Positions 7,356-61,402 are shown, numbered from the whole stretch's first letter. The stretch is 63,769 nucleotides of DNA, filler included, from Craspedostauros australis (GCA_030167865.1; 7 parts of 7 records of this genome joined end to end with filler, not necessarily neighbours in it), one strand, 5' to 3'. The notes: a model not told the origin generated them from the sequence alone. Translations and numbers: made by a program.

Positions 7356-10300
7356 ATGAGCAGCGACGTCAAGCCACCCAACCCGGCAAAGCCGAAGGCA
7401 GAAGGTGGCAGCAACAACAACAACAACAACAAAGGCAAACAACGCAACAAGCCGTACACCCCGTTCGCAAAGCCCGCCAAGTTCGAAGGCGCGTGCGCAG
7501 ACCTGAAGGGACACGTCTTTGATTGTGCTGCCGTCCGATCAAGACAAGTCGATGAGTACAGCAAGACCATCGAAGCCATCACCACATACGTGGGGACACA
7601 ATACGGACCACTCATCAGCATGGCGGTGGAGAACCTCACCGAACCAACCATCAATGAACCAGACGACTATCCTGCCAATGCGACAGACATTCAAAAGGAC
7701 AAATGGAAGCGGCAATACGCCCTCTACACAACACGCCTGCTCAACGCTGAGACCGATTACCAGAAGGTGTATTCGCTAGTCTGGGGCCAATGCTCCGATA
7801 TCATGCGCACCAGGATCCAAGAATCCGATGACTACACATCCACATCCACCAGCCGCAACACTGCTGGCCTCCTCAAGATCATCAAGAGCGTGGTATTCAA
7901 TTACCAAACGCACGAGCAGGGCACAGTTGCAGCATGCATGATCATGCAAGAACTCATGGGGCTTCGCCAAAAGCGACGACAGCCAGTGCAGGAGTACTAC
8001 GAGTCTTTCCTGAACCTCTCCGAAGTCAACGACTCAATCAAGACCTCCATCTCCGAAGTGGGCTGCATCATCGAAGCAGTCACCAAGGACAGATCGATCA
8101 CCAGTCCAAGCGCAGCACAGAAGAAGATCATCGCAGCTGCTGCCAAGCAGCGGTTCCTGGCGGTGCAATTCATCCTCGGAGCAGACCGCCACCGTTTTGG
8201 TTCTCTCATCGAGGAGCTACGCAACGACCACATCAAGGGGTCAGACCGTTACCCAACAACCATGGTTGCAGCACTCACCATGCTCAGCCATTGGTCGAAG
8301 GATCCACGTAACGTCCCCGGCATCCACACTCCAAAGGATACCGGGATGGCCTTCGTGAATGCCGATACAACCAAGGCGACATGCACACGCTGTGGGCGCT
8401 CCAACCACACTGATGAGCAATGCCACGCGAAGTACCACAGCAATGGCACTGTACTGGTACACAGCACAGAGGAATGCGACAACAACGACTTCGTGTTCCT
8501 CCATGCTCACATGTCCGGGAGTGCTGCACATACACACAATCAAGACACTGGCATCATCCCACGTTCGTGGATCCTACTCGACAACCAGTCAACCGTGGAT
8601 GTCTTCAGCAACCATCAGCTGCTCAAGGACATCCACACAACCAACAACGCACTCACCATCCACTGCAACGCCGGCACCGCCACCACCAACCAGCGCGGCA
8701 CCCTCCCTGGATACGGCGATGTCTGGTATCACCCCACAGGCGTTGCCAACATCCTCTCACTAAGCAAGGTGAAGGGTCGCTTCCGGGTCACATATGACAG
8801 CACTGGCGCCAACAGTTTCACTGTACACAAAGAGGATGGGTCAACACAGTCATTCCGCGAGTCGGCAGGAGGACTGTTCTACCTTGACACCGGCCGCATC
8901 ACGGGAGTGACAATGATTAGCACTGTAGACGATAACAGAAATAGCTTCTCGTCATTCGATTACTCGCAGGCCAAGCTGGCCAGGTCCATTCAACAACGTA
9001 TAGGTCGTCCCACCTCGCGCAACTTCATTCGATATGTGCACAATGGCCTCATCCCCAACTGTCCCATCACCACCAAGGATATCCGCACTGCTGACCTCAT
9101 CTTTGGTCCAGATGTGGCATCCTTGAAAGGGAGGACTGTCAGACAGGTGTCGCCAGCTGTTCGTGCACAGATTGCACAGCTACCAGCAAACATCATGCAA
9201 CAGTACCGAGACGTGCAGCTGTCGGTTGACATCATGGTCGTCAATGGCATCAAGTTCCTTGTGTCTGTTGCGAAACACATCAAGTTTGGAACGGTCACGA
9301 AACTGGACTCGGCGAGCAACAAACACCTCAACACGCAATTCAACAAATTGATACAACTCTACAAGCAACGTGGGTTCCGCGTCACCATCATCATGGTTGA
9401 TAACCAGTTCGAATCCCTTCGTGGCGACCTGGCGGAACATGGAGTCAGTATCAACGTTACGTCCAGGGACGAGCATGTGCCTGAAGTCGAGCGCTACATT
9501 CGTACCATCAAGGAGAAAACCAGATCGACATATCACAGCCTACCATTCAAGCACTACCCACCAATGCTCATCATCGAGATGGTCAACCACTCAGTCTTCT
9601 GGCTCAATATGTTCCCACATCCCAATGGAGTGAGCAAGCGGATGAGTCCGTCTGAGATAGTGGTCGGGCGAAAGATCGACTACAACACACATTGTCGGAT
9701 TGAGTTCGGCAGCTATGTGCACACTCATGAACAACATGATAACACCATGCGACCAAGAACAGTCGGAGCCATCACACTCCGACCATCCGGCAATGTTCAG
9801 GGCGGGCACGTATTCTTCAGCCTCGAGACCGGTATGCGAATCCATAGACGATCATGGACAGAGCTGCCCATGACACAAACAGTCATCGATCGTGTCCACG
9901 CAATGGCGAAGGCAGCCAAAGCAAACAAACAACTGAACTTTGCCACTCAGCGAGGTCTCGAGTTGTATCCCATTGCTGATGATGATGACAGCGATGATGA
10001 CAATGATGATCAATCCGATGCCAGCGACAGCCACGACGACGATGATGATGATGATGACGACTTCAGTGACGACGATGACGAATCCAGTGATGAAGACGAT
10101 GACGATGATGACTCCAACGACACAAGCAACGATGAATCCGATGAGGACTCCATTGACAGCGATGACGACAACAACGATGGAGACATCAATGAGGACCCAG
10201 ATGGCCCAATCTATGACATCCAACCAATCGCCGGCCAAGACAACGAACCAGATGTCTTCGATGACCCACAAGAGGATGCACAAGAGGAACAACCAAACAT

Positions 10301-12308
10301 CCAGCCAGCCCCTGCAACGACGTCCACGCATCACATGACCACGCGCAGAGGGCCACGAATTGACTACCGCCAACTACACAGCACAGGGCGCGGTGACACG
10401 CACGCCACAGTCACGGTGCTCTCTAATGAGCCCACTGAGGAAAACATCGAGCAACACAACGAATGCGTTTTTGTGACAGAACAGATGAACTGGAAGCGCG
10501 GACTCAAGCTGTTTCAGGAACGCGGTGAAGACGCAATCAGCAAGGAACTGGAGCAGGTACACGAGATGGATGGTTTCGAACCAAAACATTGGCATCAGCT
10601 GACTCGCGACGAAAGAGCCAAGTCCCTGCGGTACCTCATGTACCTGAAGGAAAAGCGGAACGGTATCATCAAGGGACGCGGGTGTGCTGACGGACGGAAG
10701 CAGCGCCTATACCTCACCAAGGAGGAAACCAGCTCGCCTACAGTCTCACTGCTCGGACTGATGCTCTCATGCGTGATTGATGCACATGAAGGACGTGACG
10801 TTGCGACCGTTGACGTGCCAGGAGCGTTCCTGCAGACCACATTCGACAAGGGCGATGTGGTTCATGTGCTCATCGAAGGACGGATGGCGGAACTATTGGC
10901 AAAGGTGGCTCCTGATGTGTACGCAGAATATGTGCACAAGAAACGTGGACAGTCGGCTATCTACGTGAAGCTTACAAAGGCACTATATGGCACACTGAAG
11001 GCGGCGCTACAATGGTGGAAAGACTTGACGGCGACACTGGTTGCTGACGGATTCACCATCAACCCATACGACTGGTGTGTCGCCAACAAGCACATCGATG
11101 GCAGTCAATGCACTGTCGTGTGGCATGTGGACGACTTGAAAATTTCCCACATCAAGTCATCGGCTGTGAGTGACGTGATCACCATGCTCAATGATGCCTA
11201 CGGGAAGCGCACTCCACTCACCGTTCACAGAGGAAAGCAACACGAATATCTGGGCATGACACTTGACTACTCTGAGCCTGGTGAGGTGAGAATCGATATG
11301 AAAGAATACATCGACGGCATTCTTGCAGGAGTGCCTGCCAACATGGATGGCCATGCCGTCACACCAGCTGCCAACCACCTATTCGAAGTCAACAACAACG
11401 ATCCCACTCTTCTGGATGACGACACCAAGGAGATGTTCCATCACATCGTGGCCAAGCTCCTTTTCCTGTGCAAGCGCGCACGTCCCGACATTCAAACCGC
11501 CATCTCATTCCTTTGCACCCGCGTGAAGAGCCCTGATGAGGATGATTACAAGAAATTGGCACGTACAATCAAGTACCTCCGCGCAACCCGACACCTCACT
11601 CTCACACTTGGTGGGTCCTGTCTCAGTGACGTACAATGGTGGGTGGACGGTGCCTTTGGCGTCCACAACGACATGCGCAGCCACACGGGCGCACACATGT
11701 CGACAGGAGCAGGAGCCATCTACGCCACATCGGCAAAACAGAAGCTCAACACAAAGAGCTCCACGGAAGCTGAGCTTGTGGCTGTGGATGATGTGATGCC
11801 CCAGGTGCTGTGGGTTCGCTACTTCCTTCAAGAGCAAGGCGTCGCAGCCAAACCATCAACCATACATCAAGACAACCAAAGCGCGATGTTGCTGGAGAAC
11901 AATGGGCGGCGATCCAGTGGCAAGCGCACTCGGCACATCAACATTCGATACTTCTTTGTGCACGACAGAATCCAAAACAAGGAGGTGACAGTCCAATATT
12001 GTCCCACCGATGACATGATTGGTGATTTCTTCACGAAGCCTCTGCAGGGATCGAAATTCCGGGAATTCCGGAACGCAATACTCAACCTCAGGCCGACTGC
12101 TGCCAACAAGGCCAAGACATACAAGGAAGCCCTGTTGACATCACAGGAGTGTGTTGGTGTTTGTGGTGGCCAAGGTCCACGTGGCAGAGCAGAAGAGCAC
12201 AACAATGACCCAAATGACCGGGCAGAGGCAAAGATACGCAGCCGCGGAGCACAGCACGACGAAGCACGAAGCACGGCAACAGCAAGAAGCAAGAAAACAA
12301 CCCCATAA
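7356..12308 (+). CDS. Gag-Pol polyprotein (1650 aa): Gag, Zn knuckle, protease, integrase, RT, RNase H
   Basis: CTRCGRSNHTDEQC; WILLDNQST; VDNQFE/EHVPEVER; KGRGCADG, DVPGAFL, ALYG, WHVDDL; STEAEL, QDNQSA, DFFTKPL; Copia domain order. Confidence 0.95.
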   Translation: MSSDVKPPNPAKPKAEGGSNNNNNNKGKQRNKPYTPFAKPAKFEGACADLKGHVFDCAAVRSRQVDEYSKTIEAITTYVGTQYGPLISMAVENLTEPTINEPDDYPANATDIQKDKWKRQYALYTTRLLNAETDYQKVYSLVWGQCSDIMRTRIQESDDYTSTSTSRNTAGLLKIIKSVVFNYQTHEQGTVAACMIMQELMGLRQKRRQPVQEYYESFLNLSEVNDSIKTSISEVGCIIEAVTKDRSITSPSAAQKKIIAAAAKQRFLAVQFILGADRHRFGSLIEELRNDHIKGSDRYPTTMVAALTMLSHWSKDPRNVPGIHTPKDTGMAFVNADTTKATCTRCGRSNHTDEQCHAKYHSNGTVLVHSTEECDNNDFVFLHAHMSGSAAHTHNQDTGIIPRSWILLDNQSTVDVFSNHQLLKDIHTTNNALTIHCNAGTATTNQRGTLPGYGDVWYHPTGVANILSLSKVKGRFRVTYDSTGANSFTVHKEDGSTQSFRESAGGLFYLDTGRITGVTMISTVDDNRNSFSSFDYSQAKLARSIQQRIGRPTSRNFIRYVHNGLIPNCPITTKDIRTADLIFGPDVASLKGRTVRQVSPAVRAQIAQLPANIMQQYRDVQLSVDIMVVNGIKFLVSVAKHIKFGTVTKLDSASNKHLNTQFNKLIQLYKQRGFRVTIIMVDNQFESLRGDLAEHGVSINVTSRDEHVPEVERYIRTIKEKTRSTYHSLPFKHYPPMLIIEMVNHSVFWLNMFPHPNGVSKRMSPSEIVVGRKIDYNTHCRIEFGSYVHTHEQHDNTMRPRTVGAITLRPSGNVQGGHVFFSLETGMRIHRRSWTELPMTQTVIDRVHAMAKAAKANKQLNFATQRGLELYPIADDDDSDDDNDDQSDASDSHDDDDDDDDDFSDDDDESSDEDDDDDDSNDTSNDESDEDSIDSDDDNNDGDINEDPDGPIYDIQPIAGQDNEPDVFDDPQEDAQEEQPNIQPAPATTSTHHMTTRRGPRIDYRQLHSTGRGDTHATVTVLSNEPTEENIEQHNECVFVTEQMNWKRGLKLFQERGEDAISKELEQVHEMDGFEPKHWHQLTRDERAKSLRYLMYLKEKRNGIIKGRGCADGRKQRLYLTKEETSSPTVSLLGLMLSCVIDAHEGRDVATVDVPGAFLQTTFDKGDVVHVLIEGRMAELLAKVAPDVYAEYVHKKRGQSAIYVKLTKALYGTLKAALQWWKDLTATLVADGFTINPYDWCVANKHIDGSQCTVVWHVDDLKISHIKSSAVSDVITMLNDAYGKRTPLTVHRGKQHEYLGMTLDYSEPGEVRIDMKEYIDGILAGVPANMDGHAVTPAANHLFEVNNNDPTLLDDDTKEMFHHIVAKLLFLCKRARPDIQTAISFLCTRVKSPDEDDYKKLARTIKYLRATRHLTLTLGGSCLSDVQWWVDGAFGVHNDMRSHTGAHMSTGAGAIYATSAKQKLNTKSSTEAELVAVDDVMPQVLWVRYFLQEQGVAAKPSTIHQDNQSAMLLENNGRRSSGKRTRHINIRYFFVHDRIQNKEVTVQYCPTDDMIGDFFTKPLQGSKFREFRNAILNLRPTAANKAKTYKEALLTSQECVGVCGGQGPRGRAEEHNNDPNDRAEAKIRSRGAQHDEARSTATARSKKTTP

Positions 12309-12427
12309 AATCAAACAAACAGTATCCGACGAAACAACCACACGTGAACTCGCACAGTGCATGCTCTGGCTCCACCCTTCAGCTCAGAGCTGAGTAGGGA
12401 ACCGTGCACACCGCTGTTGCATCAACA
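12152..12427 (+). repeat. 3' LTR
   Basis: Direct repeat of 7046-7321, preceded by CACAGGAGTG. Confidence 0.97.
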
Positions 12428-14174
12428 GAAGTAACTCCAGCAGTAGTCACTGTAATCGTCGATCACAAGAAGCCAGTATTTGCCCCTTCCCAGGCTGTGT
12501 GTCTGAACACTNNNNNNNNNNNNNNNNNNNNNNNNNNNNNNNNNNNNNNNNNNNNNNNNNNNNNNNNNNNNNNNNNNNNNNNNNNNNNNNNNNNNNNNNN
12601 NNNNNNNNNNNNNNNNNNNNNNNNNNNNNNNNNNNNNNNNNNNNNNNNNNNNNNNNNNNNNNNNNNNNNNNNNNNNNNNNNNNNNNNNNNNNNNNNNNNN
12701 NNNNNNNNNNNNNNNNNNNNNNNNNGTCGGTTGACACACCAACATGAGCTTGGTCGTCGGCCTTGGCATTGCTCACCATGTTCACTCCGCAAACGAAGCC
12801 GCTCTGGGTCGCCATGATGCGGTCGAAGCTGATGCGCACGCTGCCCTTCTTCAGGCTGATCACGATACCGCGGTTGCTAATGTCGAACCCATTTTCGAGA
12901 GCTTTATTGATGCTCAGCAGGTTCACCCACAGCTTCGGCACGTACTTCACTGACTTGAGTACGACGATGGATGTCCTTCCATTCTTCTGCATGACGGTCA
13001 TGCGCTTGTCCCCCACCTTGGTTGCCTTGAGGAAGCGTCCGTTTCCGATCTTCACCGATTGGTCGGAGACTTGGACGTTGGTCATTCCTTCGTCGCTGTT
13101 GGTGAGATGGCATGATGCGCCTGAATCGCCTAGCCAGGTGTTGCTTTCGTAGTGGTCTGGTGCGATGGCGGATCTCTTCGCGTCGACGTCGTTCACGTTC
13201 CCGATCATCAGAGCCACCTCGTGGCCCTCGTCGTGTTCCATGTAGAGTGGCAACACCGAGAGTTCTGGCTTCGAGTCTTGGACCCCTTTGTCGCTATCGT
13301 GATGCATCCAGAGGATGGAATGCGTAGCGTGGAGGGTCATGTGCGAGATCAGGTCGTGGGGGAACGGGTTGAAGTGGTGAAACTCCAGGCTGTTGTTGAT
13401 GTTGCACGGATTGCGACAGACGCTGATCACGTTGAACATCCCGATCTCGTGGAGTTGGAAGTACACCGATCGTGCTTCGACTTGTGGAGGGTATGCGCCC
13501 GTGTAGGTTCCAACTGCATCATAGCACAACAAGGCGAGTTCAGATCGCACGTCATTGGCTGTAAGCACGTTGCTCAATGATGCTCGGACAGCACAGCGGA
13601 GAGACCCTGCTCTTGCGAGAAAGGCGCGTCGCTCCGCGCGTTCCGCGTCGTTGGTTGGTACATCACCGCGTGGCTCGTTCGCGAGCTGGATGAAAAAGGG
13701 GACTTCGGCGCATTCCACACACCATGCGTATAGCAGACCACGCTTGAGGCACAATGGGCACCAAGCCGTGTTGGTGAGGAGTCGTGCAGACTCTTCGATC
13801 ATGCCGTCTACATAAGAGCGCTCGGGGGCAAAGTTGTAGACGGGGAGGCGGGCTGCGCCGCGTTGGTTGCCCTCGCCCATGTCGTCATCGGCGTCCTCGG
13901 TGTCGGTGGCCCCTTCGTTGGTGAGGCTTGCATTGTAGTAGGACTCTTGTCCTGGGTTGGAGTTGCTCATCTTGTTGTTGACGTTGTGTGGTCTCAAGGA
14001 AACAATGGGAGATGTGTCAGTCTGTTCGACGATGGCTGCAAAGGCGACATCTTCCATTACGTTGGAGTCGGATTGATTGTTGCTTCCGATGTCGCGTGTT
14101 TTCCCTCGTCTGCGTTCACAGACAAGTTGGTCACATTTTCCAATTCGTTCGTGTTTCCCGAGGTGGGGACACAA
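12428..14174 (-). pseudogene. Pol (extra domain, protease, integrase start) of the host Copia, disrupted by the nested insertion
   Basis: WLGDSGASCH protease; VKYVPKLWVNLLS; KYWLLVIDDYSDYCWSYF. Confidence 0.9.
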
Positions 14175-14909
14175 ATTAGCTCATCTGTCATCACAAGAGC
14201 CACGTCGTTGTTTCCCTCCATCCCATCAGTCGCCACATTGGCCGAGTCTGCCTCCTTCATGGCTGCTTTCAGCTCGAAGCACTGTAGGATCTTGTGTCCC
14301 TTCTTACCGCAGTACTTACACTCCCCGTTGAACTTGGGCTTGCTGTTGTTGTCTCCTTGGCCACTCTTCTTGTTCTTGCCGTTGCCTTTCTTAGGGGCGG
14401 AGCGGCAGTCTGCTTTCTTGTGGCCGTAGGCACCACAGTTGCGGCAGTGACCTTTGAAGCCTCCTACTGCAGCGAATGCAGTCTCTTCCTTGTTACTATT
14501 GTTCTCACGTCTATTGCCGCCGAGTTTGAGGTATCGGCCGTCGTAGGTGGCACTGACAGCCTCGCGGATGTCTTCGAGGGTCATGGTATTCTCCATACCG
14601 TCGAACTTGAGCTCCAAGAGCTTCACGTCCGTCTCGTATTCCCTTCCGAGGGCGTTGAGTACGAGCATGTGGTACTGTTGCATATCCATCTTGATGCCAG
14701 TACTACCGAGGCGATTACGCAGCACTTCCATCTCAGTTAGGAACGTGTCTGGGTGTTCACCTTTCTTCAACCGCATCCCGTTGAGTTGAGCCAACAACTT
14801 TGCCTTGACAGGCGCAGTACGCTGTTCGTAGATGCGTTCAAGGGCCTTCCACGCCTTGCGTGGGTCTCCACTCTCAGTGGGCCCGCCCTTGGTTCCCACC
14901 ACAGCCATG
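14057..14909 (-). CDS. Gag of the host Copia with two CCHC zinc knuckles, 5'-truncated by the contig end
   Basis: AWKALERIYE; CRNCGAYGHKKADC; CKYCGKKGHKILQC. Confidence 0.9.
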
Positions 14910-24639: not shown

Positions 24640-26246
24640 TCAGACAGTCAGTCCAGGGTCCTCGGTGCGCTTCAATGCATGTTGCTCAAAGCAATTGCTT
24701 CTGCTGCCATCTTCCCCAACTGGAGAGCAACACCACACTGTTTTATTCGCTGCTGCAAAAGGGCATCCATGGCAGACATACTTGACACTCTTCTTGCATC
24801 TGCAGCACATGCCTCTTTTCTTCCTCCGTCCCATCACTGTCTGCCCCTTGGAGTTTGTGTACGAGTTGGGGATGGAGTCTTCGGTGACTCGAATGCAATG
24901 ATTGCATATTTGGAACTCTGTGTTCCTTTCTTTTGGCTTTGTTGGTGATGGAGCGATCTCTGCACATCTGACTGACTTGTTGCTGGCTGTATCACTTGAT
25001 GCTGCACTGATGCCAACAACAAGTGTTTGGTCACATCTTGCTATGCGGTCTTCCTTGTTTTGTATCATGTCTTCTGCAAGTAGATTGACAAAATCATAAA
25101 GAGGCACCTGCTTGTGCCTGTGGTTTCCCGCCAAGTGATGTCTGTACGCCAGCCATGCATCCACCACAGTTATCCCAAACAACGTCGTCACGAGGCGAAA
25201 GTAGCCATTGTGGGTCCTCCACACCCTCTCAAGACCGAGGGTGTCTTGGCGTGCTTGATTGTGGCTATCCACTTTGCCACAGTCGCGGAAGTATTTCGAT
25301 GCAACTTGTGGTCTTGGAACTTCCCTGGACTCGGCAGTATCTTCATCTGAGATCCACCGGGCGATGTATGGGTTGCCTGGGTTTGCATGACCTGCCCCTT
25401 CCAAAAACACGAACAAGATCACTTTCTTCTTGCAATACTTGTACCCCATTGCATAGTATGCAGTTCTTGTTTCATTGCTGCCATCGCTGCTGTCTTCATC
25501 ATCGCCTTTGCACCGAAGGAGCAACTGCGATCCAGATGGCCAATTCTGCATTGATTTCTCAAGAAAGGCTTTTGGGAAACTGGCATGGTTGTTCTTGACG
25601 ATGCCAATGAAATCAGAATCTGCTTGAGTGGTCAAGGCATGAACTGTCCGATAGGAACCGAACCAGGCATCACCAAGGAAAATGCTCTTTGGAAGGTGTG
25701 GTGGATGGTAGTGAAGGTTCTGCTCTCCCATTCTGCTGGTGGCCATTGCCATGCGAAGGGTGCAGGCAACATGTGCTCGCTTCACAGTATCAAGATACTT
25801 TGCGTTCTCCATTCCCTTCTTGCCTCTCTGTATCTCCAGATGCAGCATGATGCCAGTTGCACCATCAGCCACCGACTTGAACTCAGTACCTAAGGGCTCT
25901 GGCTTGCGACTGACGAATGTTAGGTGCGGCAGGTTCCCATTTTTCTTTGCTTGAGGCTGAAAAGCACTCATCGATTCGTCAAGTACTTTGATGTGACTTG
26001 GTATGACAACTTCGGAGCGGCGGCGGTTGAATGCCTCGACGCCTGCCTGAATTTGCCACCATGGATCCTTGCCCCTCCTTGATTCATCCGCAAATATCAT
26101 CGGCATCAGAATTTCGCGGAGTTGGCGGAAGCGTCCTTTGGACATGTAGTTTGAGATGTTCGTAGTCTGCAGGAGCCCTTCCTGTTGCCCCTGGCCCCAA
26201 AGGTTGCAGGTGTTGTGTAGCTTTCCCAGAAGCATGATGCCAAAGA
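24640..26246 (-). CDS. piggyBac-family transposase (DDE_Tnp_1_7), 5'-truncated
   Basis: LDESM, RKPEPLG, GDAWFGS, VDSHNQARQ; C-terminal Cys-rich finger. Confidence 0.9.
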
Positions 26247-34437: not shown

Positions 34438-35322
34438 ATGGAGCGTCTTCTCCTTGCCTTGATCTGTCATTTGGTCGTTGCGTCACCATGGGTCCTCTGT
34501 CTGGCTGAGACACCACCACCAACAACAACGACGACAACGACGACCACCGCTACATATCCCAATCAATGTGTGAACAGCGCAAGCAATAGCACCTTCGGAA
34601 CGTATCCCAACCCGCTCAACATCACGCAACACGATCGCGACGGCTTCCATCCCGTCATGAAGTTCCCCGCGCCGTCCAAACCACAGCCCGCCGCCATGGA
34701 TCTCACGACCTGCGCGGACGGCATCGCACCACAATCGCAACGACACGCCGCGCAACGACGTCACGACGCCTGGCACACTCGCATTCTGCGCAGGTTCACC
34801 TTCGTCGCCGACCGACGCACCGTCGACAAGATCGGCAAATACGACGAGGATCGACAGGCGCTCTACGCGACGCAGCACTTCTTGAATGCCGACATCGACA
34901 TCGACGGCTACCGCGGCGCGCGCACGATCCATCTCGGCATCGATCTCATGGCGCGCGTCGGCACGCCCGTCTACGCCTTTGCCGATGGCGTCGTCCACGC
35001 CATGGGATACAACGCGGCGCTCGGAGATTATGGCAACGTCGTCGTCGTGCAGCACGCGCTATCGGGCAACCGCACGCTGTGGGCGCTCTACGGGCATCTC
35101 GGCGAACTGTCCTGCGCGCAGCAGATTCGCAAAGGGCAGATGATTGGGCGCATCGGTGACGTCCATGAGAATGGCGGGTGGGTGGCGCCGCATTTACATT
35201 TTCAGCTTTCGATGCATGCACCCGAGACGCATGATATGCCGGGTGCGGCGTCGCGGGAAGATCGTGAGCGGGCGTTAACACACTATCCGGATCCGCGGTA
35301 TGTTTTGGGGCCGATCTATTAG
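34438..35322 (+). CDS. Secreted M23-family metallopeptidase
   Basis: Signal peptide; HLGID (HxxxD) and HLHFQ (HxH); GDYGN, ALYGHL. Confidence 0.85.
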   Translation: MERLLLALICHLVVASPWVLCLAETPPPTTTTTTTTTATYPNQCVNSASNSTFGTYPNPLNITQHDRDGFHPVMKFPAPSKPQPAAMDLTTCADGIAPQSQRHAAQRRHDAWHTRILRRFTFVADRRTVDKIGKYDEDRQALYATQHFLNADIDIDGYRGARTIHLGIDLMARVGTPVYAFADGVVHAMGYNAALGDYGNVVVVQHALSGNRTLWALYGHLGELSCAQQIRKGQMIGRIGDVHENGGWVAPHLHFQLSMHAPETHDMPGAASREDRERALTHYPDPRYVLGPIY

Positions 35323-35635
35323 GGGTGATGTAAAGTGTGAAGATTGGAGTGGAGCCCTTGCATAGTGATACCACCGCACTTGTAGGAACCGCACGCTCCA
35401 CTCCAGAACAAACGTATCAAATGTCACATCTGTTCAACATGTTTGTACATAGTATTACTAGTTAACAGCTCTTCAATAATGGTGATAGTTGACATTGTAC
35501 GCAGGAACGCGAACTTCCTCTGAATATATTGAACTGCCATCGATTGTTTGTTGCATTGCGCTGCGTGATATAACTATCTCAGTGCCAACACAACACAACC
35601 GAGCCGTTCCATCCATCTCCATTTCATTTTTCATT

Positions 35636-36904
35636 CTACAAAATGACACAGCTGGGAGCAAAGCAACGATCGCCTTCCTCGGCCGACGCATCCACGGCAC
35701 GTCCTTGGGCCTCCTGCACGCGCTGTGCCCATGCCGCGGGAAGGCAGAATGCGTTGCGATGCAGGTCCGTGTTGTACCATTGCAGATCCTTCAACACGGC
35801 GGATGTGGGCCATCGCAGAGGCGTTTGGCACGACCGTGCGGATGGACCCTTCTGCGCCAGCACCATTCCAGTTTCGCCGGTCTGGCACGAGGGTGCCTTG
35901 ATGGTGGCGAATTCCACGGCGTCGAACAGGGCAGAGAAGGCTGTGATGGAAGCCTTGATGGCCGCCTCCTGGATCCAAAACGATCCCGTCTTTGCGCAGA
36001 CAACGCCGTTCGCCTTCAAGGCGTCGTGGACATACTTGCACAGCTGCGCATTTGATGTGGATTCCTCTTCTTCGGGTTCTGGCGTCGTTGGCATCGCAAG
36101 CTCGAGGTTCATGTTGATGAAAATAACGTCGTATTGGTTGCTCTTCGTTTCTGCGAGCTTGGCCAAGAATTCCTCGCCGTCCTGCTCGACGATCTGCAAT
36201 CGAGAATCTTGCCACACTTTGGATGGCACCATGTCTGACAGATGCTTCTTGCTGACTTCGATGAGCGTGGGATCGGCCTCGACCATCGTGATCTTATCAA
36301 CGTGGTTGTGCCGGCATACCTCGCGCACGATGGTGCCGTCTCCGCCACCCAACACGAGCACGTTGCGTGGTCGTTTGTGCGAGTACATCGTGATGTGCAC
36401 CATCATTTCGCTGGAGACTCGTTCATCCTTCTCCGTGAGTTCTGTTGTTCGAAGCGATAGTACATTGGCATACGGATGTACAGACGGTGTTGGGATGAAG
36501 CAGAATGAAACAAATGGGTGAGTGGATGTTGCTGATGGCAGAACAGGAGACGCCTCAATGCCAAGCCCAAACAAACCTCACTTACGAATCGTCTTGTCCA
36601 CGGTCAGAACCTTGCCGTACTGCGCCGATTGGAACACGAGCACATCGTTGTTGACGTCCGATTTGGAATGACACAAGATGGCCTGCTTGTCCACGGACTT
36701 TTCCAATGCCAACGACATGCGCTGACCCGTGGACTGCGTCTGCGTGAACCAACCATGTTCGATGCCAGGATACGTCTTGACCTTGGGCGGCTGTGGTTTG
36801 GGCGGTTTGGCAACGACGGGGATGCTGGCCGGTTCCTTCAAACCCTTCGTGGGAACGCTGTGGCGGTATTTCGCCTCTTGGCCTTTGGATTCGACGGCGC
36901 CCAT
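35636..36904 (-). CDS. Spermidine-synthase-like protein; exons 36904-36586 and 36441-35636
   Basis: GWF, YGKVLTVD, QLTEKDE (across a GTAAGT...ACAG intron), VLVLGGGDG, YNTDLHRNAFCLP. Confidence 0.88.
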
Positions 36905-37801
36905 TGTTGCTGTTGCTTGGTGTGGTGTCGATGAACTTCGATGATGCAAATGAGACCAATGGAAGTGTTGCTCTTGATTCAGTTGTTACTTGTGTGCGCC
37001 TCTTGTGGGTGTGAATGACTGCTTCTGGATACTGTGTGGAAGTTCGTCGTCTCGTCAGAACTCAAGAAAGAGAGAGGAACCCAGCACCCAATACGGACGT
37101 GGAGATTCGTTTCAAATTCTCACAAGGGAGGCTGGTTCTCCCTAAAACGATGCAAGCGGAGAGGAACTGTTTTTATGGCCTTTCTCGTTGCTCGTCGTTT
37201 CGATTTCTCGATCAGCTTGTTGTGGCAACTTCCGTCGAAACGATGATGATGGTGATGATGATAACAAGTACTCTATGACTCTCTCTTCTCTCTTCTCTCT
37301 CCTCTCCTCTCTCTGTCTCAGTCAACACACACAAGAGGGAGATCTCACGACCTTTCCATGACTTCTGCAGCGATGATGATGATGTGTTGTTTGCGTGTTG
37401 TTTGTTTCGCTTTGGCCCGCGCTTTCTGCGACGCCTTGTGGAGAAAGAAGAACCTTCTCATTGAATTGTGACCGTCATCGTCCCTGATCGTCATCGACTG
37501 TTCGCAAACCAAACACGATTTCGGTTTATTTCGAACCAAAAAAGTCGAACAATGTACTCCAATGGGTCATACAGGACTAAAGTTGCTTTCCGCTCGCGCA
37601 GGCGAAACTTCGCCAATGCAACTGCACAAACTTCCGTCACAATTTCGGTAAAATTCCGAACGAAAAGGAGATGTTGTTCGTTGCGTACTGTTCGATACGA
37701 GCCACTGTCGTGAATTCCGTGCTCCTCCTATCTTGCGTTACCTGCCGTCTATTGTATAATATTATATTATACTATTAGATTCAATACCTCACTCGCTCAT
37801 G

Positions 37802-40450
37802 TCAGACGGTATTGTTGATGGTCAAGTTGTTTCCGTACACCGTGATCGTCTCCAGATTGGGCAGCTCGGTCACCTGCGTTGGGATCGTGCCGACCAGATC
37901 ATTCTCGTGCAACTCAAGACTTGTCAGTTCCACCAAGTTGCCGAGGTCTGTGGGTATTATACCCGTGAGGAAGTTGGAGTTCAAGCGGAGCATCTGCAGG
38001 TATGGTAGCATGCCCAATTCCGAAGGGATGGGACCGGTCAGCTCATTGCCGTCTAATCGTATGAGCGCGATCTCAGTCATGTTGCCCAACACGGTTGGAA
38101 TCGTACCATTGAATGAATTATCCCACAACTCCAAATTGGACAGACCCCGCAAAGCCCCCAGTTCGTCAGGTAGTGGCCCTGATAGCTCATTATTGGCCAT
38201 GATCAGGGATGTCAGGTTACCCAATCGCCCAATCTCGGATGGGATCTGACCGCCAATTCCTGTGAACAAAATTTCGATCCCCTCCAACAAAAGCATGTCG
38301 CCAATCTCGGTCGGGATCGTTCCATTCAACGGGAGACTTTCCAATGTCAGGAACGATATCTTCGTCAGTCGTGCGATGGTGGTTGGAATGGTTCCCTGCA
38401 GGTTGGTTACGCTCACGTCCAAATGCATCAGATTCGTGCACTTTCCAATCTCGGATGGGATGGTTCCGGATATCGATGAGAAGATGAGACCGAGGGCATC
38501 GAGATTCGTCAGCAATCCGATTTCCGTTGGAATCTGGCCCGTCACTCTATTACCGTCCAAGGCTAGCTGTTTGAGCTGCCGCAAGTCACCGATGTGTGAC
38601 GATATCGTACCAGTGATCTCGTTGTTGTTCAGATCCAGCCAGCGCAGGCCGTTCAATAAAAACAGAGCTGGATCGATAGCACCTTTCAAACCATAATTGA
38701 GTAAGAACAGGCCACTCACGGTTTGAGAGTCGTCGCATACCACCCCAAGGGAAGAACGAGCGTTCCACTCGCAGATGTCCAGATCGGACAGGAAACCGAA
38801 TGAGATGCCCCAAGATGCACCGTCCATCGACATGTATATGCTCACGAGGGCGTAGTATTCCAAGATCCGGCGGCCTGAATTTGCATTTGCTTGTCGCAGC
38901 AGCTGGAATGGAATCCCGTTTTCGCCATTGGCCATCCAATCTATCACTTGGTATGGGACGGTTTCGTTGTTGGTGAACAGGGATCGTGGAATGGAGGTTG
39001 GTGGTTGCTGGAGGGTTGGTGCGAGAAATTCCATCAAAGCGAAGAATGCATCCGTTTGCTCGAATTCGGTGGTCGGTTCAATCGACGGTTGGCCCGACGG
39101 AGGTGCCGATGGAATCTTGGACGGTGCTGATGATGGCAGTCGGGATGGTGATAAAGACGGTGGGTGGGATGGGATAGATGATGGCTGCTCGCTTGGTGAT
39201 ACGGACGGGTTGTTGGTTGGTTGGGACGATGAGATGATATCATTTCCCACAACCGCACTGCCGCCATCGTCTCTGGTTAGCAGTACAATGAGTACGATTG
39301 CAGCGACGACGGACAAGAGCACAAGGAGCACGGCGGCTATGCCCCGGATATATTTGCGCTTGCCATGCGCATTGCTGCTGTGGCTGGATGAGTCGGCCTC
39401 GATATCACCACTGTCGCCATCAGTGGGAGACATGCCAAAATCTCCGTTGCCACTCACCACCTGCGCGGACAGGTGAGGTGCGGCAACCACCGCAGCGACC
39501 GGAACGTTTCTCATCTGCTGATGGTGTCGCTGCACTTCCCGTAGAATGGTTGCTTCGACATCAGCGGGGGTGAGGGAGTCATCAACGGCGATGGCGGAGG
39601 CGATGCCTTCGATATCCAAGCTTCCCATGGCGTTGGCGGAAGCTGCTGGTGAGGCTGATGGCGGGTCGGTTCGCAACGTGGGGGTATCATTCGCTGTGGC
39701 AGTCGCCTCCAGCGCGATCCCGGAGTCAGCAGTGCGGATCTCCTCCATTCGTTCCGACGTACTTTCCCGACTGCCGCTGCGTGCACCGCTACTGGATTGC
39801 GTCATGGCGGTGGATCGTCCACCATACTGCAGAGTAAGGGTGTCATCATCGTCACCGTCGAACAACTCCGGTCCGTCGTCGTTGTCGTCGTCGGTGGCAT
39901 TGTCAGTGGCATTGTCGAAGCCGCGGATATTAGAATCCACATCGCCCTCTTCATTTTTCATGACAGCTGAGTCATCTGAACTTGCCAACGTTTTCATCAC
40001 GGCGCGCTCATCATCATCCTCAGCACCGGAATTCATCATGCCTGGAGCGATGAGCGACGCTTCCTCTTTGTCATCGCTGAGAATGTTCGGCGCGCCCGTC
40101 GACGGCAGATCCGTCATCATGGCCTTGGCCATGACATTGTACCGTTGCTGCGTCGACTTGCGGGGCTCCCGCAGCTTGTCGCCACCGGTTCCGACCGATG
40201 GTCTCATGAGGATGGAACCATGCGGTTCCTGTTTCTGCGGTAGCGGGTTCGTCGAGTTGATTGCAATGCCTTCGGCAGCACGCAACGACGTGAATCGGCG
40301 GCTTTGTCGCTGACTGCGCCTGTTGCGCAACACCTCGGAGCGGGCTCTGCGCATGGCTAGTGAGTCATCAGCAGCATCATCATGGGGGGCTTCGTCTGCC
40401 GTGTCCTCCTGATCCTGACCACCGGTCTCTTCTTCTGAAGATCTATCCAT
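37802..40450 (-). CDS. Diatom-type LRR receptor-like membrane protein (no kinase)
   Basis: Low-complexity N-terminus, TM helix, PSxxP stalk, CEW..GVVC cap, many LxxNxLxGxIPxxIG repeats. Confidence 0.92.
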   Translation of the reverse strand: MDRSSEEETGGQDQEDTADEAPHDDAADDSLAMRRARSEVLRNRRSQRQSRRFTSLRAAEGIAINSTNPLPQKQEPHGSILMRPSVGTGGDKLREPRKSTQQRYNVMAKAMMTDLPSTGAPNILSDDKEEASLIAPGMMNSGAEDDDERAVMKTLASSDDSAVMKNEEGDVDSNIRGFDNATDNATDDDNDDGPELFDGDDDDTLTLQYGGRSTAMTQSSSGARSGSRESTSERMEEIRTADSGIALEATATANDTPTLRTDPPSASPAASANAMGSLDIEGIASAIAVDDSLTPADVEATILREVQRHHQQMRNVPVAAVVAAPHLSAQVVSGNGDFGMSPTDGDSGDIEADSSSHSSNAHGKRKYIRGIAAVLLVLLSVVAAIVLIVLLTRDDGGSAVVGNDIISSSQPTNNPSVSPSEQPSSIPSHPPSLSPSRLPSSAPSKIPSAPPSGQPSIEPTTEFEQTDAFFALMEFLAPTLQQPPTSIPRSLFTNNETVPYQVIDWMANGENGIPFQLLRQANANSGRRILEYYALVSIYMSMDGASWGISFGFLSDLDICEWNARSSLGVVCDDSQTVSGLFLLNYGLKGAIDPALFLLNGLRWLDLNNNEITGTISSHIGDLRQLKQLALDGNRVTGQIPTEIGLLTNLDALGLIFSSISGTIPSEIGKCTNLMHLDVSVTNLQGTIPTTIARLTKISFLTLESLPLNGTIPTEIGDMLLLEGIEILFTGIGGQIPSEIGRLGNLTSLIMANNELSGPLPDELGALRGLSNLELWDNSFNGTIPTVLGNMTEIALIRLDGNELTGPIPSELGMLPYLQMLRLNSNFLTGIIPTDLGNLVELTSLELHENDLVGTIPTQVTELPNLETITVYGNNLTINNTV

Positions 40451-56823: not shown

Positions 56824-59800
56824 CTAGGCCTCAAGCCTAGCAGCAGACCACACCGGCACGAGTGCACCGGAAACGTTGTCCCAGTGCCTAAAGAACGTGG
56901 GCGGAGCCGNCTGCTTGGTGCCCATGTCGGCAGCATTCACAGTTGTGTCGATATCCATGAACGTGATGAGCTCGTTTTCGACCCACTGCTGCACGGCAAA
57001 ATGCCGAATCTCAACATGTCGTGTGCGTCTTGAGGGTTGCCCAGCATTCGCTATCATGAGGGCCCCTTGATTGTCTTCGTACAGGACAGTTGCCTGCACT
57101 TGTGGCACACCGAGTTCCTCCAGCGTACATCGCAGGCAAAGGGCCATGCGACCCGCATCAGAGGCGCAGAGCAACTCAGCCTCAGTGCTGGACATTGCCA
57201 CTGTAGGCTGCACTCTCGCTTTCCACGCGACCGTGGCGCCTGCCAGCTTGAAGACGATGCTGGAAACGGACCTGCGATGCCGAGTATCGGTGGCCCAGTC
57301 GCTATCAGCGTACCCGTAGAGGACAGAAGGATCTTCATTGGGATGGCGATGAAATACACCATCCTGAACCGCAACGGCGGCCGGCAGGGGAAGGTCCGGA
57401 AGGTCCACGACCCGCTTAGTGCGATGGTACGTGACCCCGCGACCCATCGTGCCATGAAGATACCGAAAGATTCGCTTGACCGCCGTAAAGTGCAAAGCTG
57501 AAGGTCGTGCTGAGAACTGCGAGAGCTTGACCACGGGGAAAGTGATGTCTGGACGACAAGTCACCATGGGCCAGATAAGCTCACCAACAGCTTGCCGATA
57601 TGACCCAAACTTGGCTTGAATCTTGCGAAGCTCATCAGATTCGAGTGCCTCCGCATCATCCAGAGCCTTGACATGAGCGTTGCTGGCCGCCATGGGAAGT
57701 TCAGTGTCATGCATGTCGTCCCAATCATGACGCCGGAATACCTTGCCGAGGTATGTGGCGTTGTGCATGGTGATATGCGTGGACGTTTGAATGATGTCGG
57801 CCCCATTGAAGTGCTGGAGCAAACCAAAACGCTTCATGGGCACGAAGAGAAACCCATCAAGTTCATCACAGATCGCCCCAAACGTGTCAGCACAGTCGCA
57901 TGCGATGGCGAAGTCGTCAACTTGTCTGAGGAACAGAACATCGCGCCCTTTGTATGTGGCCCTGTAAAGGCACGGTGCATGCGTGGTCGGCTTGAACCCC
58001 ATGCGTTGCAGTTGAGCATCGATGTGTCTTGCCCATTGCCGGGGCGCCTCAGGATGCCCTTGAAGGTTCTTGCAGATGGGAATGACATGCCCCTTCGGAA
58101 TGGGTGGCTTGCCTTTCGACTTCCACCAGTTGGCGAATGGTATGTCCACATGCATGAAGTATCGTTGCTCACCGCAAGGGGCTTCTGCAAATGCATTGGA
58201 CACATCGGCGCCGTAGATTTTCTTGTTTTCCAAAGCCGAGATGGCCACAAAAAGTCGAAAATCCGTAGCATCCGGTGTCGCAGTGAATGTGTGTCCAGTG
58301 ATGACAGCCTTGCCTGCGCGAGGAGATCCATCGCACACTGCGCGGGCCTTGCGGCGCGTCTCAGTGGGATTCTGTTTGAGCACGTAGACCCAGACCCAAT
58401 GGAACACCTGGTCACCGCCTTGAGCAGCCACTGGGCTGCCGAACATGCCCTGGTCGTCGTATTGCTGGAGCTGCTGAAACTCAGATTGCTCCCAAAGTTC
58501 CCACTCGTCTTGACCACGTAACACTCGTCGTGTGAGCTTGAGCGCCACTCGATGACGTGAAGATGAGTCGTCCCCGCCGTCGTCTTTGGCGGCACGGCAC
58601 AGCGCCCGGATGTCTCGCCACTGGTCGAAGTACAGTTGTACCAGACCACGAGCGGACAGAGTGTTGCGTATGGCGTCAAAAGCGAACGTGAAGGTGGCTT
58701 GAGTTTCACCAAGTCCTCGAGCGTCACGGACGACCGTCTCAAGTTCCGGCAGGTCGTATACTGGTAGGCCATTGACCGCCAGCAAGTATGCGCCGCGAAG
58801 CCTTGATTTCCACTGGGGTACACGCCNTGCGCGCTGCCCAGAAGAAATGTCGAAGAGTCGAAGCCTCTCACGGTGATTGTTCGAGTTCCACTCGATGCCC
58901 GCATGCGGATGGTTGCCAAACAACGGTATGTCCACGTCGAAAGACTTGTCATACGGATGGCCGGACATGTCCAGCATCATGACGTCGTTCATGGGTGGTT
59001 TGNNNNNNNNNNNNNNNNNNNNNNNNNNNNNNNNNNNNNNNNNNNNNNNNNNTGTCCACGTCGAAAGACTTGTCATACGGATGGCCGGACATGTCCAGCA
59101 TCATGACGTCGTTCATGGGTGGTTTGGCATGCACGGCTGCAGCAGACGCAGCCGGCGCGATGTGGAATCCATCACGGAGAGGTAGCGGAACGAAACTTGC
59201 ACCTTGGATCCCAGGCAGGACTTTGAGCTTGTCAAGGGTTGGTTGAATGGCGAAAGGTGGACCACCAACTTTTGGTTCCGCAGCTGCACCTTCGACAGGT
59301 GCCTCAACCTGTTCAGCACCCAGGTCGAAGAGAAGTTGGGCTGAGGGTGGACGATCCGTGCACATGTAGTGTGCCTCATCGAACACCACGGAACCACCAA
59401 CCTTGACAGTGCCGGAGTCCAGATCGATGTACCGAATATTGACTCCATTGCCCATGAATCCAAGGAAGATCCCGCTGTAGGTGTGCACATCCAGCTTTCG
59501 GATGGCTTTGTCAGGCTTGCGAACCGTGACGCGAGATCCAAATACCCTCAGATGTGCAATATCGGGGATGTTGCCGTTGAGCGCTTCATATGGCGTTTTG
59601 CCAATGGCAGCATGCCACATGCGATTGCGCAGATATGCAGCATGTAACAGCGCTGCCGACCAATACTGCGGTGGCAGACCAGCCCCATACAGCATGGCAC
59701 GAACCATGACCGCGTACACTCGATTGAGTCTCTCAGCCTTGCCATTTCGATGATGTACACCGGCGCCCGTTGGTTCGAGGATGTACCCAGCATCACGAAC

Positions 59801-61402
59801 CATTTCCGCGAATGCCCGGGATGTGTACAGCTCACCACCATGATCCACTCGAATGGCACGGTAGCCGTCCTTCCGACCGAACCGTTGGAGGTGTGTACGC
59901 ACCACATCAACTGGAGTGCTCTTGCCTTCGGTGTTAAACACCCACGCGTACCTCGAGTATGCATCCACGATGAGCAGATATGCAGTACATCGGTCAAAGG
60001 ATTCCACCACTGCCGGCATGTTCTTGACTTTGGCGTACTGAGACGAGCTCGCACGCATGTAGCCGAAGTCCATATGGAATCGAGAACCAACCGCCAGAGC
60101 GGAAACGTCAGCAGTAGGACCTCTCGGCTGTCGNTGTGCACGGGCCTCCATGCACGTGGTGCACATGCGGACCGGATGTTGACCGGTTGCAACCTTGGCG
60201 GGGATGCCCACAGAGTGTTGCGGAAGATGTACCATCTGATGATGCCCAGGATGTCCAAGGCGCTGATGCCACAGCTCGTAGGTGAGGGCTTTGTTTCCAG
60301 TAGATGCTGTCACGCTGTGTACAGAGTACAGAGCCATGAAAAAGTAGAGGTCGTTGATCCTCACCATGGAAGCGCGCTTGGAGAACTTGTGTGCGTTGCC
60401 ATAGAACCTGACATGGGGGTCATTACGATCCCTGCACACCACATCGAAGGTGTCATACACCGCCGAGTGCTCACAGATGAGCTGTGGAGAGAGAAGAGTG
60501 GCCGAGACGTGCTGGCAGAAGTACATCGGGATGGGGATGACATCGCCATCGTCGAGCCGGAATGGAAAGACACCACGGTGTGTGCACACCATAGCACCTG
60601 ACCTGACGTCGGCGCCGGATAGGTCGAGTGGAAGGTCGAGTGGNNNNNNNNNNNNNNNNNNNNNNNNNNNNNNNNNNNNNNNNNNNNNNNNNNTCACGCT
60701 GTGTACAGAGTACAGAGCCATGAAAAAGTAGAGGTCGTTGATCCTCACCATGGAAGCGCGCTTGGAGAACTTGTGTGCGTTGCCATAGAACCTGACATGG
60801 GGGTCATTACGATCCCTGCACACCACATCGAAGGTGTCATACACCGCCGAGTGCTCACAGATGAGCTGTGGAGAGAGAAGAGTGGCCGAGACGTGCTGGC
60901 AGAAGTACATCGGGATGGGGATGACATCGCCATCGTCGAGNCNGAATGGAAAGACACCACGGTGTGTGCACACCATAGCACCTGACCTGACGTCGGCGCC
61001 GGATAGGTCGAGTGGAAGGTCGAGTGGNGTCACGTCCGCAAGGACGTGTTTGGCATTGGTGACTGAGATGTTGGCACCCAAGTCGCACTGCTGGCGGGCA
61101 GCGCTGTTGAATCCGCCAACCGGTGTCACATGATGGAGCAGTGGAACGCTGTGTATACGTTCATGACCACCGCTCGCCTCATGGGCAATGACACATGCGA
61201 TGCTTGGCCCTTCAGGCACGAGCATGTGCCACTCAGTCGGCTGCGCGGGTGGCTTTGGAAGCACCTGCGAGGTCGACTGAGTACCATGGGCCTGTGATGG
61301 CGCAGGCAGTATGCCAACGGAGTTGGCTGGCCCTGAATCTACCGCGCNTNCATGTGTGATAAGCCGTTCACCAGCAGAAGGATGTGCTGGCCGGCTTAGG
61401 AA
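56824..61402 (-). CDS. Pol: protease, integrase, PDZ-like insert, RT, RNase H
   Basis: CDLGANIS; LWHQRLGH..CTTC; IRVDHGGEL, NGKAER; RKARAVCDGS, DVSNAF, RQVDDF; YADSDWA, STEAEL, YEDNQGA. Confidence 0.9.

Follow-up and report, generated by a model that had tools for sequence, protein, structure and literature searches.

Canonical spermidine synthases (SpdS), such as those of Plasmodium falciparum, human (SRM) and Arabidopsis thaliana (SPDS1), are two-domain enzymes with a GGGDG glycine loop. According to the available part of PMC10968388, PtSDS2 of the diatom Phaeodactylum tricornutum (XP_002185737.1; P0392; full-length JGI model P0387) synthesizes spermidine in vitro and carries Phe at position 79; its expression falls in G1 and G2/M, and a pull-down with it recovered PtSDS1, indicating a heterodimer. 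A catalytically dead paralog in the polyamine pathway is described for trypanosomatids, where the prozyme of S-adenosylmethionine (AdoMet) decarboxylase (AdoMetDC) activates AdoMetDC by heterodimer formation (available parts of PMC6221367 and PMC5201418). The gene described here lies on the minus strand at positions 35636-36904 of the window, i.e. the whole 63,769-nucleotide stretch (filler included) of Craspedostauros australis DNA that was analysed. Its two exons give a spliced product of 374 amino acids, which combines an SpdS fold and a degenerate active site with an N-myristoylation consensus at one end and a CaaX box at the other. It is probably a dual-lipid-anchored, non-catalytic and selectively kept SpdS paralog, which serves as a membrane scaffold or subunit and has arisen inside a clade of CaaX-tailed homologs.

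With canonical SpdS the C. australis protein shares the two-domain architecture, the fold and the GGGDG loop. It differs from these enzymes in that both active-site aspartates and both substrate tyrosines are replaced, an acidic insert takes the place of the gatekeeping loop, and flexible extensions of 45 residues at the N-terminus and 25 residues at the C-terminus are added, each with a lipidation motif. The CaaX-tailed SpdS of diatoms, exemplified by PtSDS2 and Nitzschia inconspicua P0269, belong to the same clade and display the same fold and C-terminal module (acidic linker, C-F-[LA], CaaX), but keep Asp196 and Asp199 (P. falciparum numbering) as well as PTYP, lack the MG start and are 33-43% identical to the C. 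australis protein. The AdoMetDC prozyme offers an analogy in the way of working, being likewise a dead polyamine-pathway paralog kept under selection. However, it derives from another enzyme with another fold and carries no lipid anchors, and activation by heterodimer formation, demonstrated there in the parts of the two papers available, is here only proposed.

Fold and active site of the C. australis protein

Both SpdS domains of Pfam match the protein: Spermine_synth (PF01564) with an E-value of 2.4e-36 and 125.5 bits (cut-off 22.9) and, within exon 1, Spermine_synt_N (PF17284) with an E-value of 5.2e-09 and 36.3 bits (cut-off 22.1). Its best match in the PDB is P. falciparum SpdS (E 4.7e-34), followed by the spermidine synthases of C. 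elegans, human and Arabidopsis, and a total of 26 distinct PDB sequences match at E ≤0.001. An AlphaFold model based on 56 aligned homologs reached a mean predicted local distance difference test (pLDDT) score of 86.2 and a predicted template modelling (pTM) score of 0.82. The core, comprising approximately residues 45-216 and 233-351, is modelled mostly with a pLDDT above 90, and low confidence is confined to residues 1 to about 35, about 217-232 and about 352-374, with a pLDDT of about 55 in the tail. In a Foldseek comparison with the PDB, SpdS occupied all listed ranks with target TM-scores of 0.86-0.94, the top hits reaching 0.88-0.94 with E-values of about 1e-30. Judged by sequence and model, the protein has the complete two-domain SpdS fold. 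No hydrophobic segment was found in it, the maximum Kyte-Doolittle hydropathy over 19 residues being 1.2, and with this low value anchoring by a signal peptide or transmembrane segment was rejected.

For the analysis of the active site, 385 homologs of at least 250 amino acids were aligned with MAFFT and the columns numbered according to P. falciparum SpdS (P0291). Four segments of the C. australis protein are of particular relevance:

36404..36427, minus strand: DERVSSEM, residues 112-119, in place of DE(F)xYxEM (DEFAYHEM in P. falciparum); the substrate tyrosine (P. falciparum Tyr102, human Tyr79) is Ser116 and the neighbouring His/Gln is Ser
36335..36349, minus strand: GGGDG, residues 138-142, nucleotide-binding glycine loop with its Asp, kept
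36107..36130, minus strand: DVIFINMN, residues 211-218, in place of DVIIxDSSDP (DVIIVDSSDP in P. falciparum); the catalytic Asp (P. falciparum Asp196, human Asp173) has become Asn216 (36113-36115), and the second Asp is absent
35882..35893, minus strand: PSCQ, residues 290-293, in place of PTYP; the substrate tyrosine (P. falciparum Tyr264) is Cys292

The catalytic Asp196 is Asp in 379/385 homologs and Asn in two, namely the C. australis protein and P0123, its ortholog described below. Position 102 is Tyr in 352/385 and Phe in 26, and the single Ser belongs to the C. australis protein, which also has Ser at position 103, where 368/385 sequences display Gln or His. Asp199, present in 371/385, is replaced, different aligners placing Thr, Leu or Met opposite it. 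Likewise, Gln229 (358 of 385) is exchanged for Lys, Tyr264 (Tyr in 346 and Phe in 15 of the 385) for Cys, Gln72 (352/385) for Asn, and Glu231 for Gly. Moreover, the gatekeeping loop of SpdS is replaced by an acidic insert of low pLDDT at about residues 217-232. The positions listed are known from structural work as catalytic residues or substrate ligands of SpdS. Set against the conservation of these columns, the active-site changes of the C. australis protein are far from chance variation. Of the features expected of a competent aminopropyltransferase, the catalytic Asp, the second Asp, an ordered gatekeeping loop and both substrate tyrosines are all missing.

The first-pass annotation of this DNA had claimed that GGGDG is retained and that the catalytic motifs are changed to DERVSSEM, DVIFINMNLE and PSCQ. 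The glycine loop is indeed present, and the three changes were borne out by the alignment to P. falciparum SpdS and the 385 homologs. Of the human residue numbers given there, the correspondence of Asp176 and Tyr241 is adopted here as our assumption. The other two, Tyr79 and Asp173, agree with PMC10968388, which in the part available names Tyr79, Asp104 and Asp173 as SpdS residues and reports an about 12-fold drop in the activity of a diatom SpdS on the single exchange Tyr79Phe.

Ortholog, selection and gene structure

A HMMER scan of 1.84 billion representative proteins yielded 5868 relatives at E ≤0.001, of which only P0123 (372 amino acids, 44% identity, E 1.3e-77) rises above the general family level, the next being P0005 with 6.2e-57. 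In a profile search of a set of 5.8 billion sequences, P0123 scored 753 bits and P0003, the database entry of the C. australis protein, 744 bits, followed by the next sequence at 279 bits. P0123 originates from a transcriptome of Stauroneis constricta, starts with MGAAESR and ends with RCFMKECIIL. In common with the C. australis protein it has Asn at position 196, Gly at position 231 and a two-residue deletion which removes the Trp of MWPGQ. However, P0123 retains Tyr102-His103, whereas its glycine loop reads GGGGYGG, with Asp127 exchanged for Gly and two residues inserted, Asp178 is replaced by Ser and the PTYP loop is deleted. Its model has a pLDDT of 83.5 and disordered ends.

The derived changes shared by both proteins suggest that the loss of catalysis preceded the separation of the two species. 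Since P0123 has lost other ligands than the C. australis protein, no common cofactor or substrate site is preserved. In our reading of the two sequences, neither site was protected after the split, whereas the fold and both termini were. Only these two species have this subfamily. The strain called S. constricta presumably groups with Craspedostauros, an assumption for which a full-text literature search gave no confirmation.

Conservation between the two orthologs is structured by region. Identical residues amount to 5/7 in the N-terminal motif, 8/37 in the N-terminal linker, 24/59 in the N-domain, 53/105 in the first Rossmann half, 3/13 in the insert replacing the gatekeeping loop, 49/104 in the second Rossmann half, 6/19 in the acidic C-terminal linker and 6/10 in the C-terminal tail. 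Accordingly, the core is 41-50% identical, in comparison to 22-23% in the N-terminal linker and the insert and 32% in the acidic C-terminal linker. The reading frames are intact in both species (372-374 codons). When unconstrained substitution was simulated up to 44% protein identity, none of 1000 sequences stayed free of stop codons, with a mean of 10.7 and a minimum of 3 stops. This crude neutral simulation stands in for the ratio of nonsynonymous to synonymous substitution rates, because synonymous sites would be saturated at 44% protein identity. Intact frames together with a core more conserved than the linkers show that the gene is not a decaying pseudogene, a possibility which the first-pass annotation had named as one that would overturn its interpretation. 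The combination of lost catalytic residues with apparent purifying selection is the pattern expected of a regulatory, prozyme-like pseudoenzyme.

The gene model underlying these comparisons comprises the following elements:

36905..37161, minus strand: 5' leader, 257 nucleotides, covered by contigs of the public run X1
36586..36904, minus strand: exon 1, codons 1-106 and base 1 of codon 107, reading MGAVESK...VDKTI; it encodes the disordered N-terminal linker and the N-terminal beta domain of SpdS (Pfam Spermine_synt_N)
36442..36585, minus strand: intron of 144 nucleotides, GTAAGT...AACAG, phase 1, with an in-frame stop if retained
35636..36441, minus strand: exon 2, from the remainder of codon 107 to the stop, beginning (Q)LTEKDERVSSEM... 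and ending ...RCFAPSCVIL followed by TAG; it encodes the Rossmann-type catalytic domain of SpdS (Pfam Spermine_synth) and the C-terminal tail
35468..35635, minus strand: 3' untranslated region, to the limit of the covering X1 contig

The reading frame opens with MGAVESK at 36904 and closes with SCVIL and a TAG at 35636-35638, i.e. with the start and end proposed by the first-pass annotation, whose description of the gene did not include the intron. Contigs of run X1 span 35468-37161 without any difference from the window, and one of them joins 36441 directly to 36586, omitting exactly the 144-nucleotide intron with its CT..AC ends on the plus strand. A second splice joint was not found in the X1 contigs covering the gene, and two further runs of the same study contained next to no matching words. 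The spliced translation is identical letter for letter to P0003 (374 amino acids), which was predicted from a 1693-nucleotide C. australis transcript contig and bears the UniRef name 'PABS domain-containing protein'. Together with the intron-skipping contig, this identity shows that the gene is expressed and spliced. Reading upstream from the ATG, an in-frame stop is reached after 27 codons without an intervening ATG, and no ATG occurs in any frame of the 257 nucleotides of covered 5' leader. The lack of an upstream ATG, the in-frame stop, the intron-skipping contig and the identical transcript-derived protein render start, stop and splice site as secure as sequence data allow, which settles the earlier reservation that the true start or stop might be different. 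The G+C content at third codon positions (GC3) of the coding sequence is 0.725, compared to 0.572 overall.

The adjoining genes are of other kinds. The convergent neighbour at 34438-35322 on the plus strand encodes a protein whose Thr-rich N-terminus precedes a Peptidase_M23 domain (E 9.1e-19), and the 3' side of this gene is covered by an X1 contig (35200-35438). Upstream, at 37802-40450 on the minus strand, leucine-rich repeats (LRR_14, E 3.7e-23) are found in the C-terminal third of an open reading frame (ORF) of 882 amino acids, which also has a Ser/Pro-rich stretch and a hydrophobic segment. ORFs of mobile elements are situated at 7356-14908, 24640-26235 and 56824-61225; they include pieces of copia-type gag, integrase and reverse transcriptase (RVT_2, Retrotran_gag_2, gag_pre-integrs) and a piggyBac-like DDE transposase (DDE_Tnp_1_7, E 1.3e-19). 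A functional link to neighbouring genes was rejected, none of them being related to polyamines.

Terminal lipidation motifs and their distribution

The two ends of the C. australis protein are formed by the following motifs:

36884..36904, minus strand: MGAVESK, codons 1-7, N-myristoylation consensus (Gly2, Ala3, Ser6, Lys7); MGAAESR in the ortholog
35639..35668, minus strand: RCFAPSCVIL, residues 365-374; Cys366 is part of the family-wide C-F-[LA] motif, and CVIL (Cys371, X = Leu) at 35639-35650 is the CaaX box

A CaaX box is defined by a Cys at position -4 and an aliphatic a2 residue on an accessible C-terminus, and the residue X selects the prenyltransferase, Leu directing the protein to geranylgeranyltransferase I. 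In order to view the tail in its family, the C-termini of 495 homologs of at least 200 amino acids were compared, a sample enriched in diatoms by the choice of queries and containing 470 distinct C-termini. Cys occupies position -4 in 109/470 of these, but each of the other positions from -1 to -8 in no more than 1-8, and position -9 in 66. Among the 109 tails, a2 is Ile, Leu or Val in 107 (93, 8 and 6, respectively), and X is Ser, Gln, Leu or Met in 102 (44, 27, 25 and 6, respectively). Position by position, the sequences of these tails match the prenyltransferase rules. A strict CaaX box is found in 106/470 C-termini, mostly of diatoms, and 89 of the 106 also possess an upstream C-[FLI]-[LAMVF].

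The nearest homologs, whose catalytic motifs are intact, end with CTIS, CTIL, CSIL, CVIL, CAIL, CTIM, CTVS or CTIQ. In most cases an acidic linker and C-F-L stand shortly before this end. Diatom members were found in the centric species Coscinodiscus wailesii and in Phaeodactylum tricornutum, Seminavis robusta, Nitzschia inconspicua, Pseudo-nitzschia multistriata, Cylindrotheca closterium and Chaetoceros tenuissimus; Heterosigma akashiwo, Chrysoparadoxa australica and a Dictyocha-like entry represent members outside the diatoms. The proteins concerned (P0004-P0020, P0269-P0272, P0415-P0506) display C-F-L, two to six further residues and then the CaaX box. In a maximum-likelihood tree of 59 rows, most CaaX rows fall into a single clade of 33 rows, supported by a Shimodaira-Hasegawa-like approximate likelihood ratio test (SH-aLRT) value of 94. 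The C. australis protein and P0123 are sisters (SH-aLRT 100) inside this clade, adjoining a 'DTLDP' subfamily (SH-aLRT 87). On the basis of these sequences, the CaaX tail goes back to the ancestor of a large clade, made up mainly of diatom SpdS homologs whose catalytic residues seem intact.

The earlier interpretation as an SpdS-fold protein with a degenerate site and conserved lipidation motifs stands, with the correction that the CaaX box is family-wide and no peculiarity of this protein. What sets this lineage apart is confined to the MG motif at the N-terminus and the lost catalytic residues. N-myristoyltransferase recognizes Gly2, a small uncharged residue 3 and Ser/Thr at position 6, with Lys7 being favourable. 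Among the 495 homologs, 15 start with MG, and the combination of an MG start with Cys at -4 occurs in two, the C. australis protein and P0123. Both lipidation motifs, whose conservation had been proposed as a check, are kept in this only ortholog despite 56% divergence: MGA[VA]ES[KR] next to an unconserved linker, and RCFxxxC[VI]IL at the other end, with both tails flexible and of low confidence in both models. The MG motif is new to the Craspedostauros/Stauroneis lineage, although with one ortholog the statistical weight of this observation is modest.

The C-terminal end resembles the Ras-type module, in which a Cys at -4, an aliphatic a2 and a canonical X are combined with another Cys situated 5-9 residues further upstream, the whole tail being flexible. 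In contrast to that module, the C. australis protein carries its tail on a metabolic-enzyme fold, the preceding linker is acidic rather than basic, and an N-terminal myristoylation motif is present in addition.

Further variation was observed within the family. In P0010, P0015, P0023 and P0007/P0401, C-F-L is followed by a longer extension rich in hydrophobic residues (e.g. CFLDG..L..FQ...) instead of a CaaX box, which may be an alternative membrane-binding end or the result of an unspliced or read-through model. The DTLDP sister subfamily (P0269, P0270, P0124, P0131, P0153, P0415-P0440) has DTLDP for DSSDP and an extra 'VP' segment in common with the C. australis protein. It is widespread in Bacillariaceae, with 59-75% identity to the Nitzschia protein, and the names of C. 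australis and S. constricta are absent from the 120 matches listed for it. P0165 and P0185, two CaaX-tailed members of the clade, possess independently degenerate motifs (GGGNGG and VEETPP in one case, DTWNL in the other), which suggests repeated loss of catalysis in the family.

Alternative explanations and possible role

According to the explanation considered most probable, a membrane-anchored pseudoenzyme, the gene would have arisen by duplication inside the diatom-wide clade of CaaX-tailed SpdS. Catalytic residues would have been lost and the N-terminal signal gained before C. australis and S. constricta diverged, with purifying selection acting since. The SpdS body would be folded but incapable of aminopropyl transfer by the known mechanism. 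One anchor would be N-myristate on Gly2 and the other a geranylgeranyl group on Cys371 of the CVIL box, possibly reinforced by palmitate on Cys366. With two flexible tethers each ending in a lipid, the body would be held flat against the cytosolic side of a membrane, where its role would most likely be structural, as a membrane-fixed scaffold or subunit which organizes or modulates polyamine synthesis. The conserved SpdS dimer surface might serve for pairing, either between two copies of the protein or between it and one of the active CaaX-tailed paralogs. Pairing between diatom SpdS paralogs has a precedent in the pull-down of PtSDS1 by PtSDS2 (available part of PMC10968388).

Several observations weigh against this explanation. 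In the C. australis protein, GGGDG with the Asp127 that binds decarboxylated AdoMet (dcAdoMet), the ribose-binding Glu147 and the adenine-binding Asp178 are all kept, so that the protein may still bind dcAdoMet, methylthioadenosine (MTA) or AdoMet. The predicted N-myristoylation rests on two sequences. The active paralogs carry a CaaX box of their own, and the C. australis protein would hence be unnecessary for bringing them to the membrane. The pair is fast-evolving in the tree, with a stem length of 1.12 and tips of 0.79 and 0.97, compared to a median tip of 0.45. Such long branches fit a release from catalytic constraint but would also fit partly relaxed or weak overall constraint. Run X1 is only guessed to be RNA. 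In the NCBI taxonomy, C. australis is assigned to Mastogloiales and S. constricta to Naviculales, and with different orders the true distance between the species, and hence the evolutionary rate, is uncertain. Finally, PtSDS2 fused at its C-terminus to enhanced green fluorescent protein (EGFP) was reported to be cytoplasmic in the available part of PMC10968388. However, the cited NCBI model XP_002185737.1 (275 amino acids, partial) lacks the last 27 residues of the 327-residue JGI models, including CFLADPKCSIL, and the word 'C-terminal' does not occur in the available text of PMC10968388. With a C-terminal tag and a cited model devoid of the CSIL end, this localisation is no test of the tail.

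The retained cofactor residues, together with a pocket-forming core modelled at a pLDDT above 90, would suit a protein repurposed as a membrane-bound sensor or sequesterer that binds dcAdoMet, MTA, AdoMet or a polyamine. This main rival is considered unlikely. P0123 has the two-residue insertion in its glycine loop and has lost Asp127 and Asp178, and a function shared by both orthologs can therefore not depend on canonical nucleotide binding; in P0003 itself, Gln72, Tyr102, His103, Asp199, Gln229 and Tyr264 are replaced. The same cofactor residues of P0003 could also point to an enzyme that still transfers aminopropyl or other alkyl groups by means of non-canonical residues or to an unusual acceptor, for instance a long-chain polyamine or a protein-bound amine. 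Such an activity would find company among the many uncharacterised aminopropyltransferase homologs of diatoms, 8 standalone and 32 fused ones being reported for N. inconspicua (available part of PMC12803844), and in the altered DTLDP motif of the sister subfamily. It is nevertheless judged very improbable, given that the deprotonating Asp is Asn in both orthologs, that P0003 lacks both substrate tyrosines and P0123 the PTYP loop, and that no intact set of active-site residues is common to the two.

A different objection concerns the termini, which might be unused, MGxxxS and CaaX being mere resemblances in a soluble, fast-evolving SpdS paralog. Chance MG starts among the homologs (15/495) and the cytoplasmic PtSDS2-EGFP are in line with this, but both motifs are kept between orthologs although the adjacent linkers are not, the 109 CaaX tails obey the prenyltransferase rules by position, and the PtSDS2 construct, as described in the available part of PMC10968388, masked or lacked the tail. 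Mere resemblance is on balance decidedly unlikely. Least credible of all, and already contradicted, is a decaying pseudogene or a mis-modelled gene. Lost catalytic residues and long branches would be expected of a pseudogene, yet the frames of 372-374 codons are intact in both species while 0/1000 neutral simulations stayed open, a spliced transcript-like contig and the identity to a transcript-derived protein support the gene model, and the GC3 of 0.725 versus 0.572, the regional structure of conservation and the confidence of both protein models likewise count against it.

With respect to earlier work, no literature linking SpdS with CaaX boxes or prenylation, in diatoms or elsewhere, was found in open-access full text and bioRxiv, partly judged by titles and abstracts. 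By titles and abstracts of the same sources, no SpdS pseudoenzyme was found, the matches being confined to trypanosome and DHS contexts. The review PMC6356823 contains no occurrence of prenyl, CaaX, farnesyl or myristoyl, and the literature on prenylated proteins and farnesyltransferase of diatoms gave nothing relevant among the matches listed. C. australis itself is employed in published work for imaging proteins in living cells. PtSDS2 represents the one published localisation of a CaaX-tailed SpdS, and in the available part of that report the tail was neither noticed nor tested.

Judged by its sequence, the C. australis protein is a homolog of the SpdS family which would not qualify as a working aminopropyltransferase and which appears as a variant of the dead-paralog theme in the polyamine pathway. 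If this is true, the SpdS family would gain its first pseudoenzyme, and one with the unusual feature of a lipid anchor at either end of a metabolic-enzyme fold. What most merits pursuit is the family-wide CaaX tail, which touches the question where and how diatoms build their silica-templating polyamines, the enzymes having so far been treated as soluble. A tentative and rather improbable extension would be that diatoms, together with certain other ochrophyte algae, bind much of their SpdS-type machinery to membranes by a conserved palmitoyl-Cys and the CaaX box, so that chain extension, perhaps of long-chain polyamines, takes place at e.g. the Golgi or the silica deposition vesicle, and that in the Craspedostauros lineage the doubly anchored dead paralog acts as organiser or regulator, a lipid-anchored counterpart of the prozyme. 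In any case, a CaaX box that abides by the rules throughout the family, together with its upstream Cys, predicts membrane-bound polyamine synthesis, and this prediction is directly testable.

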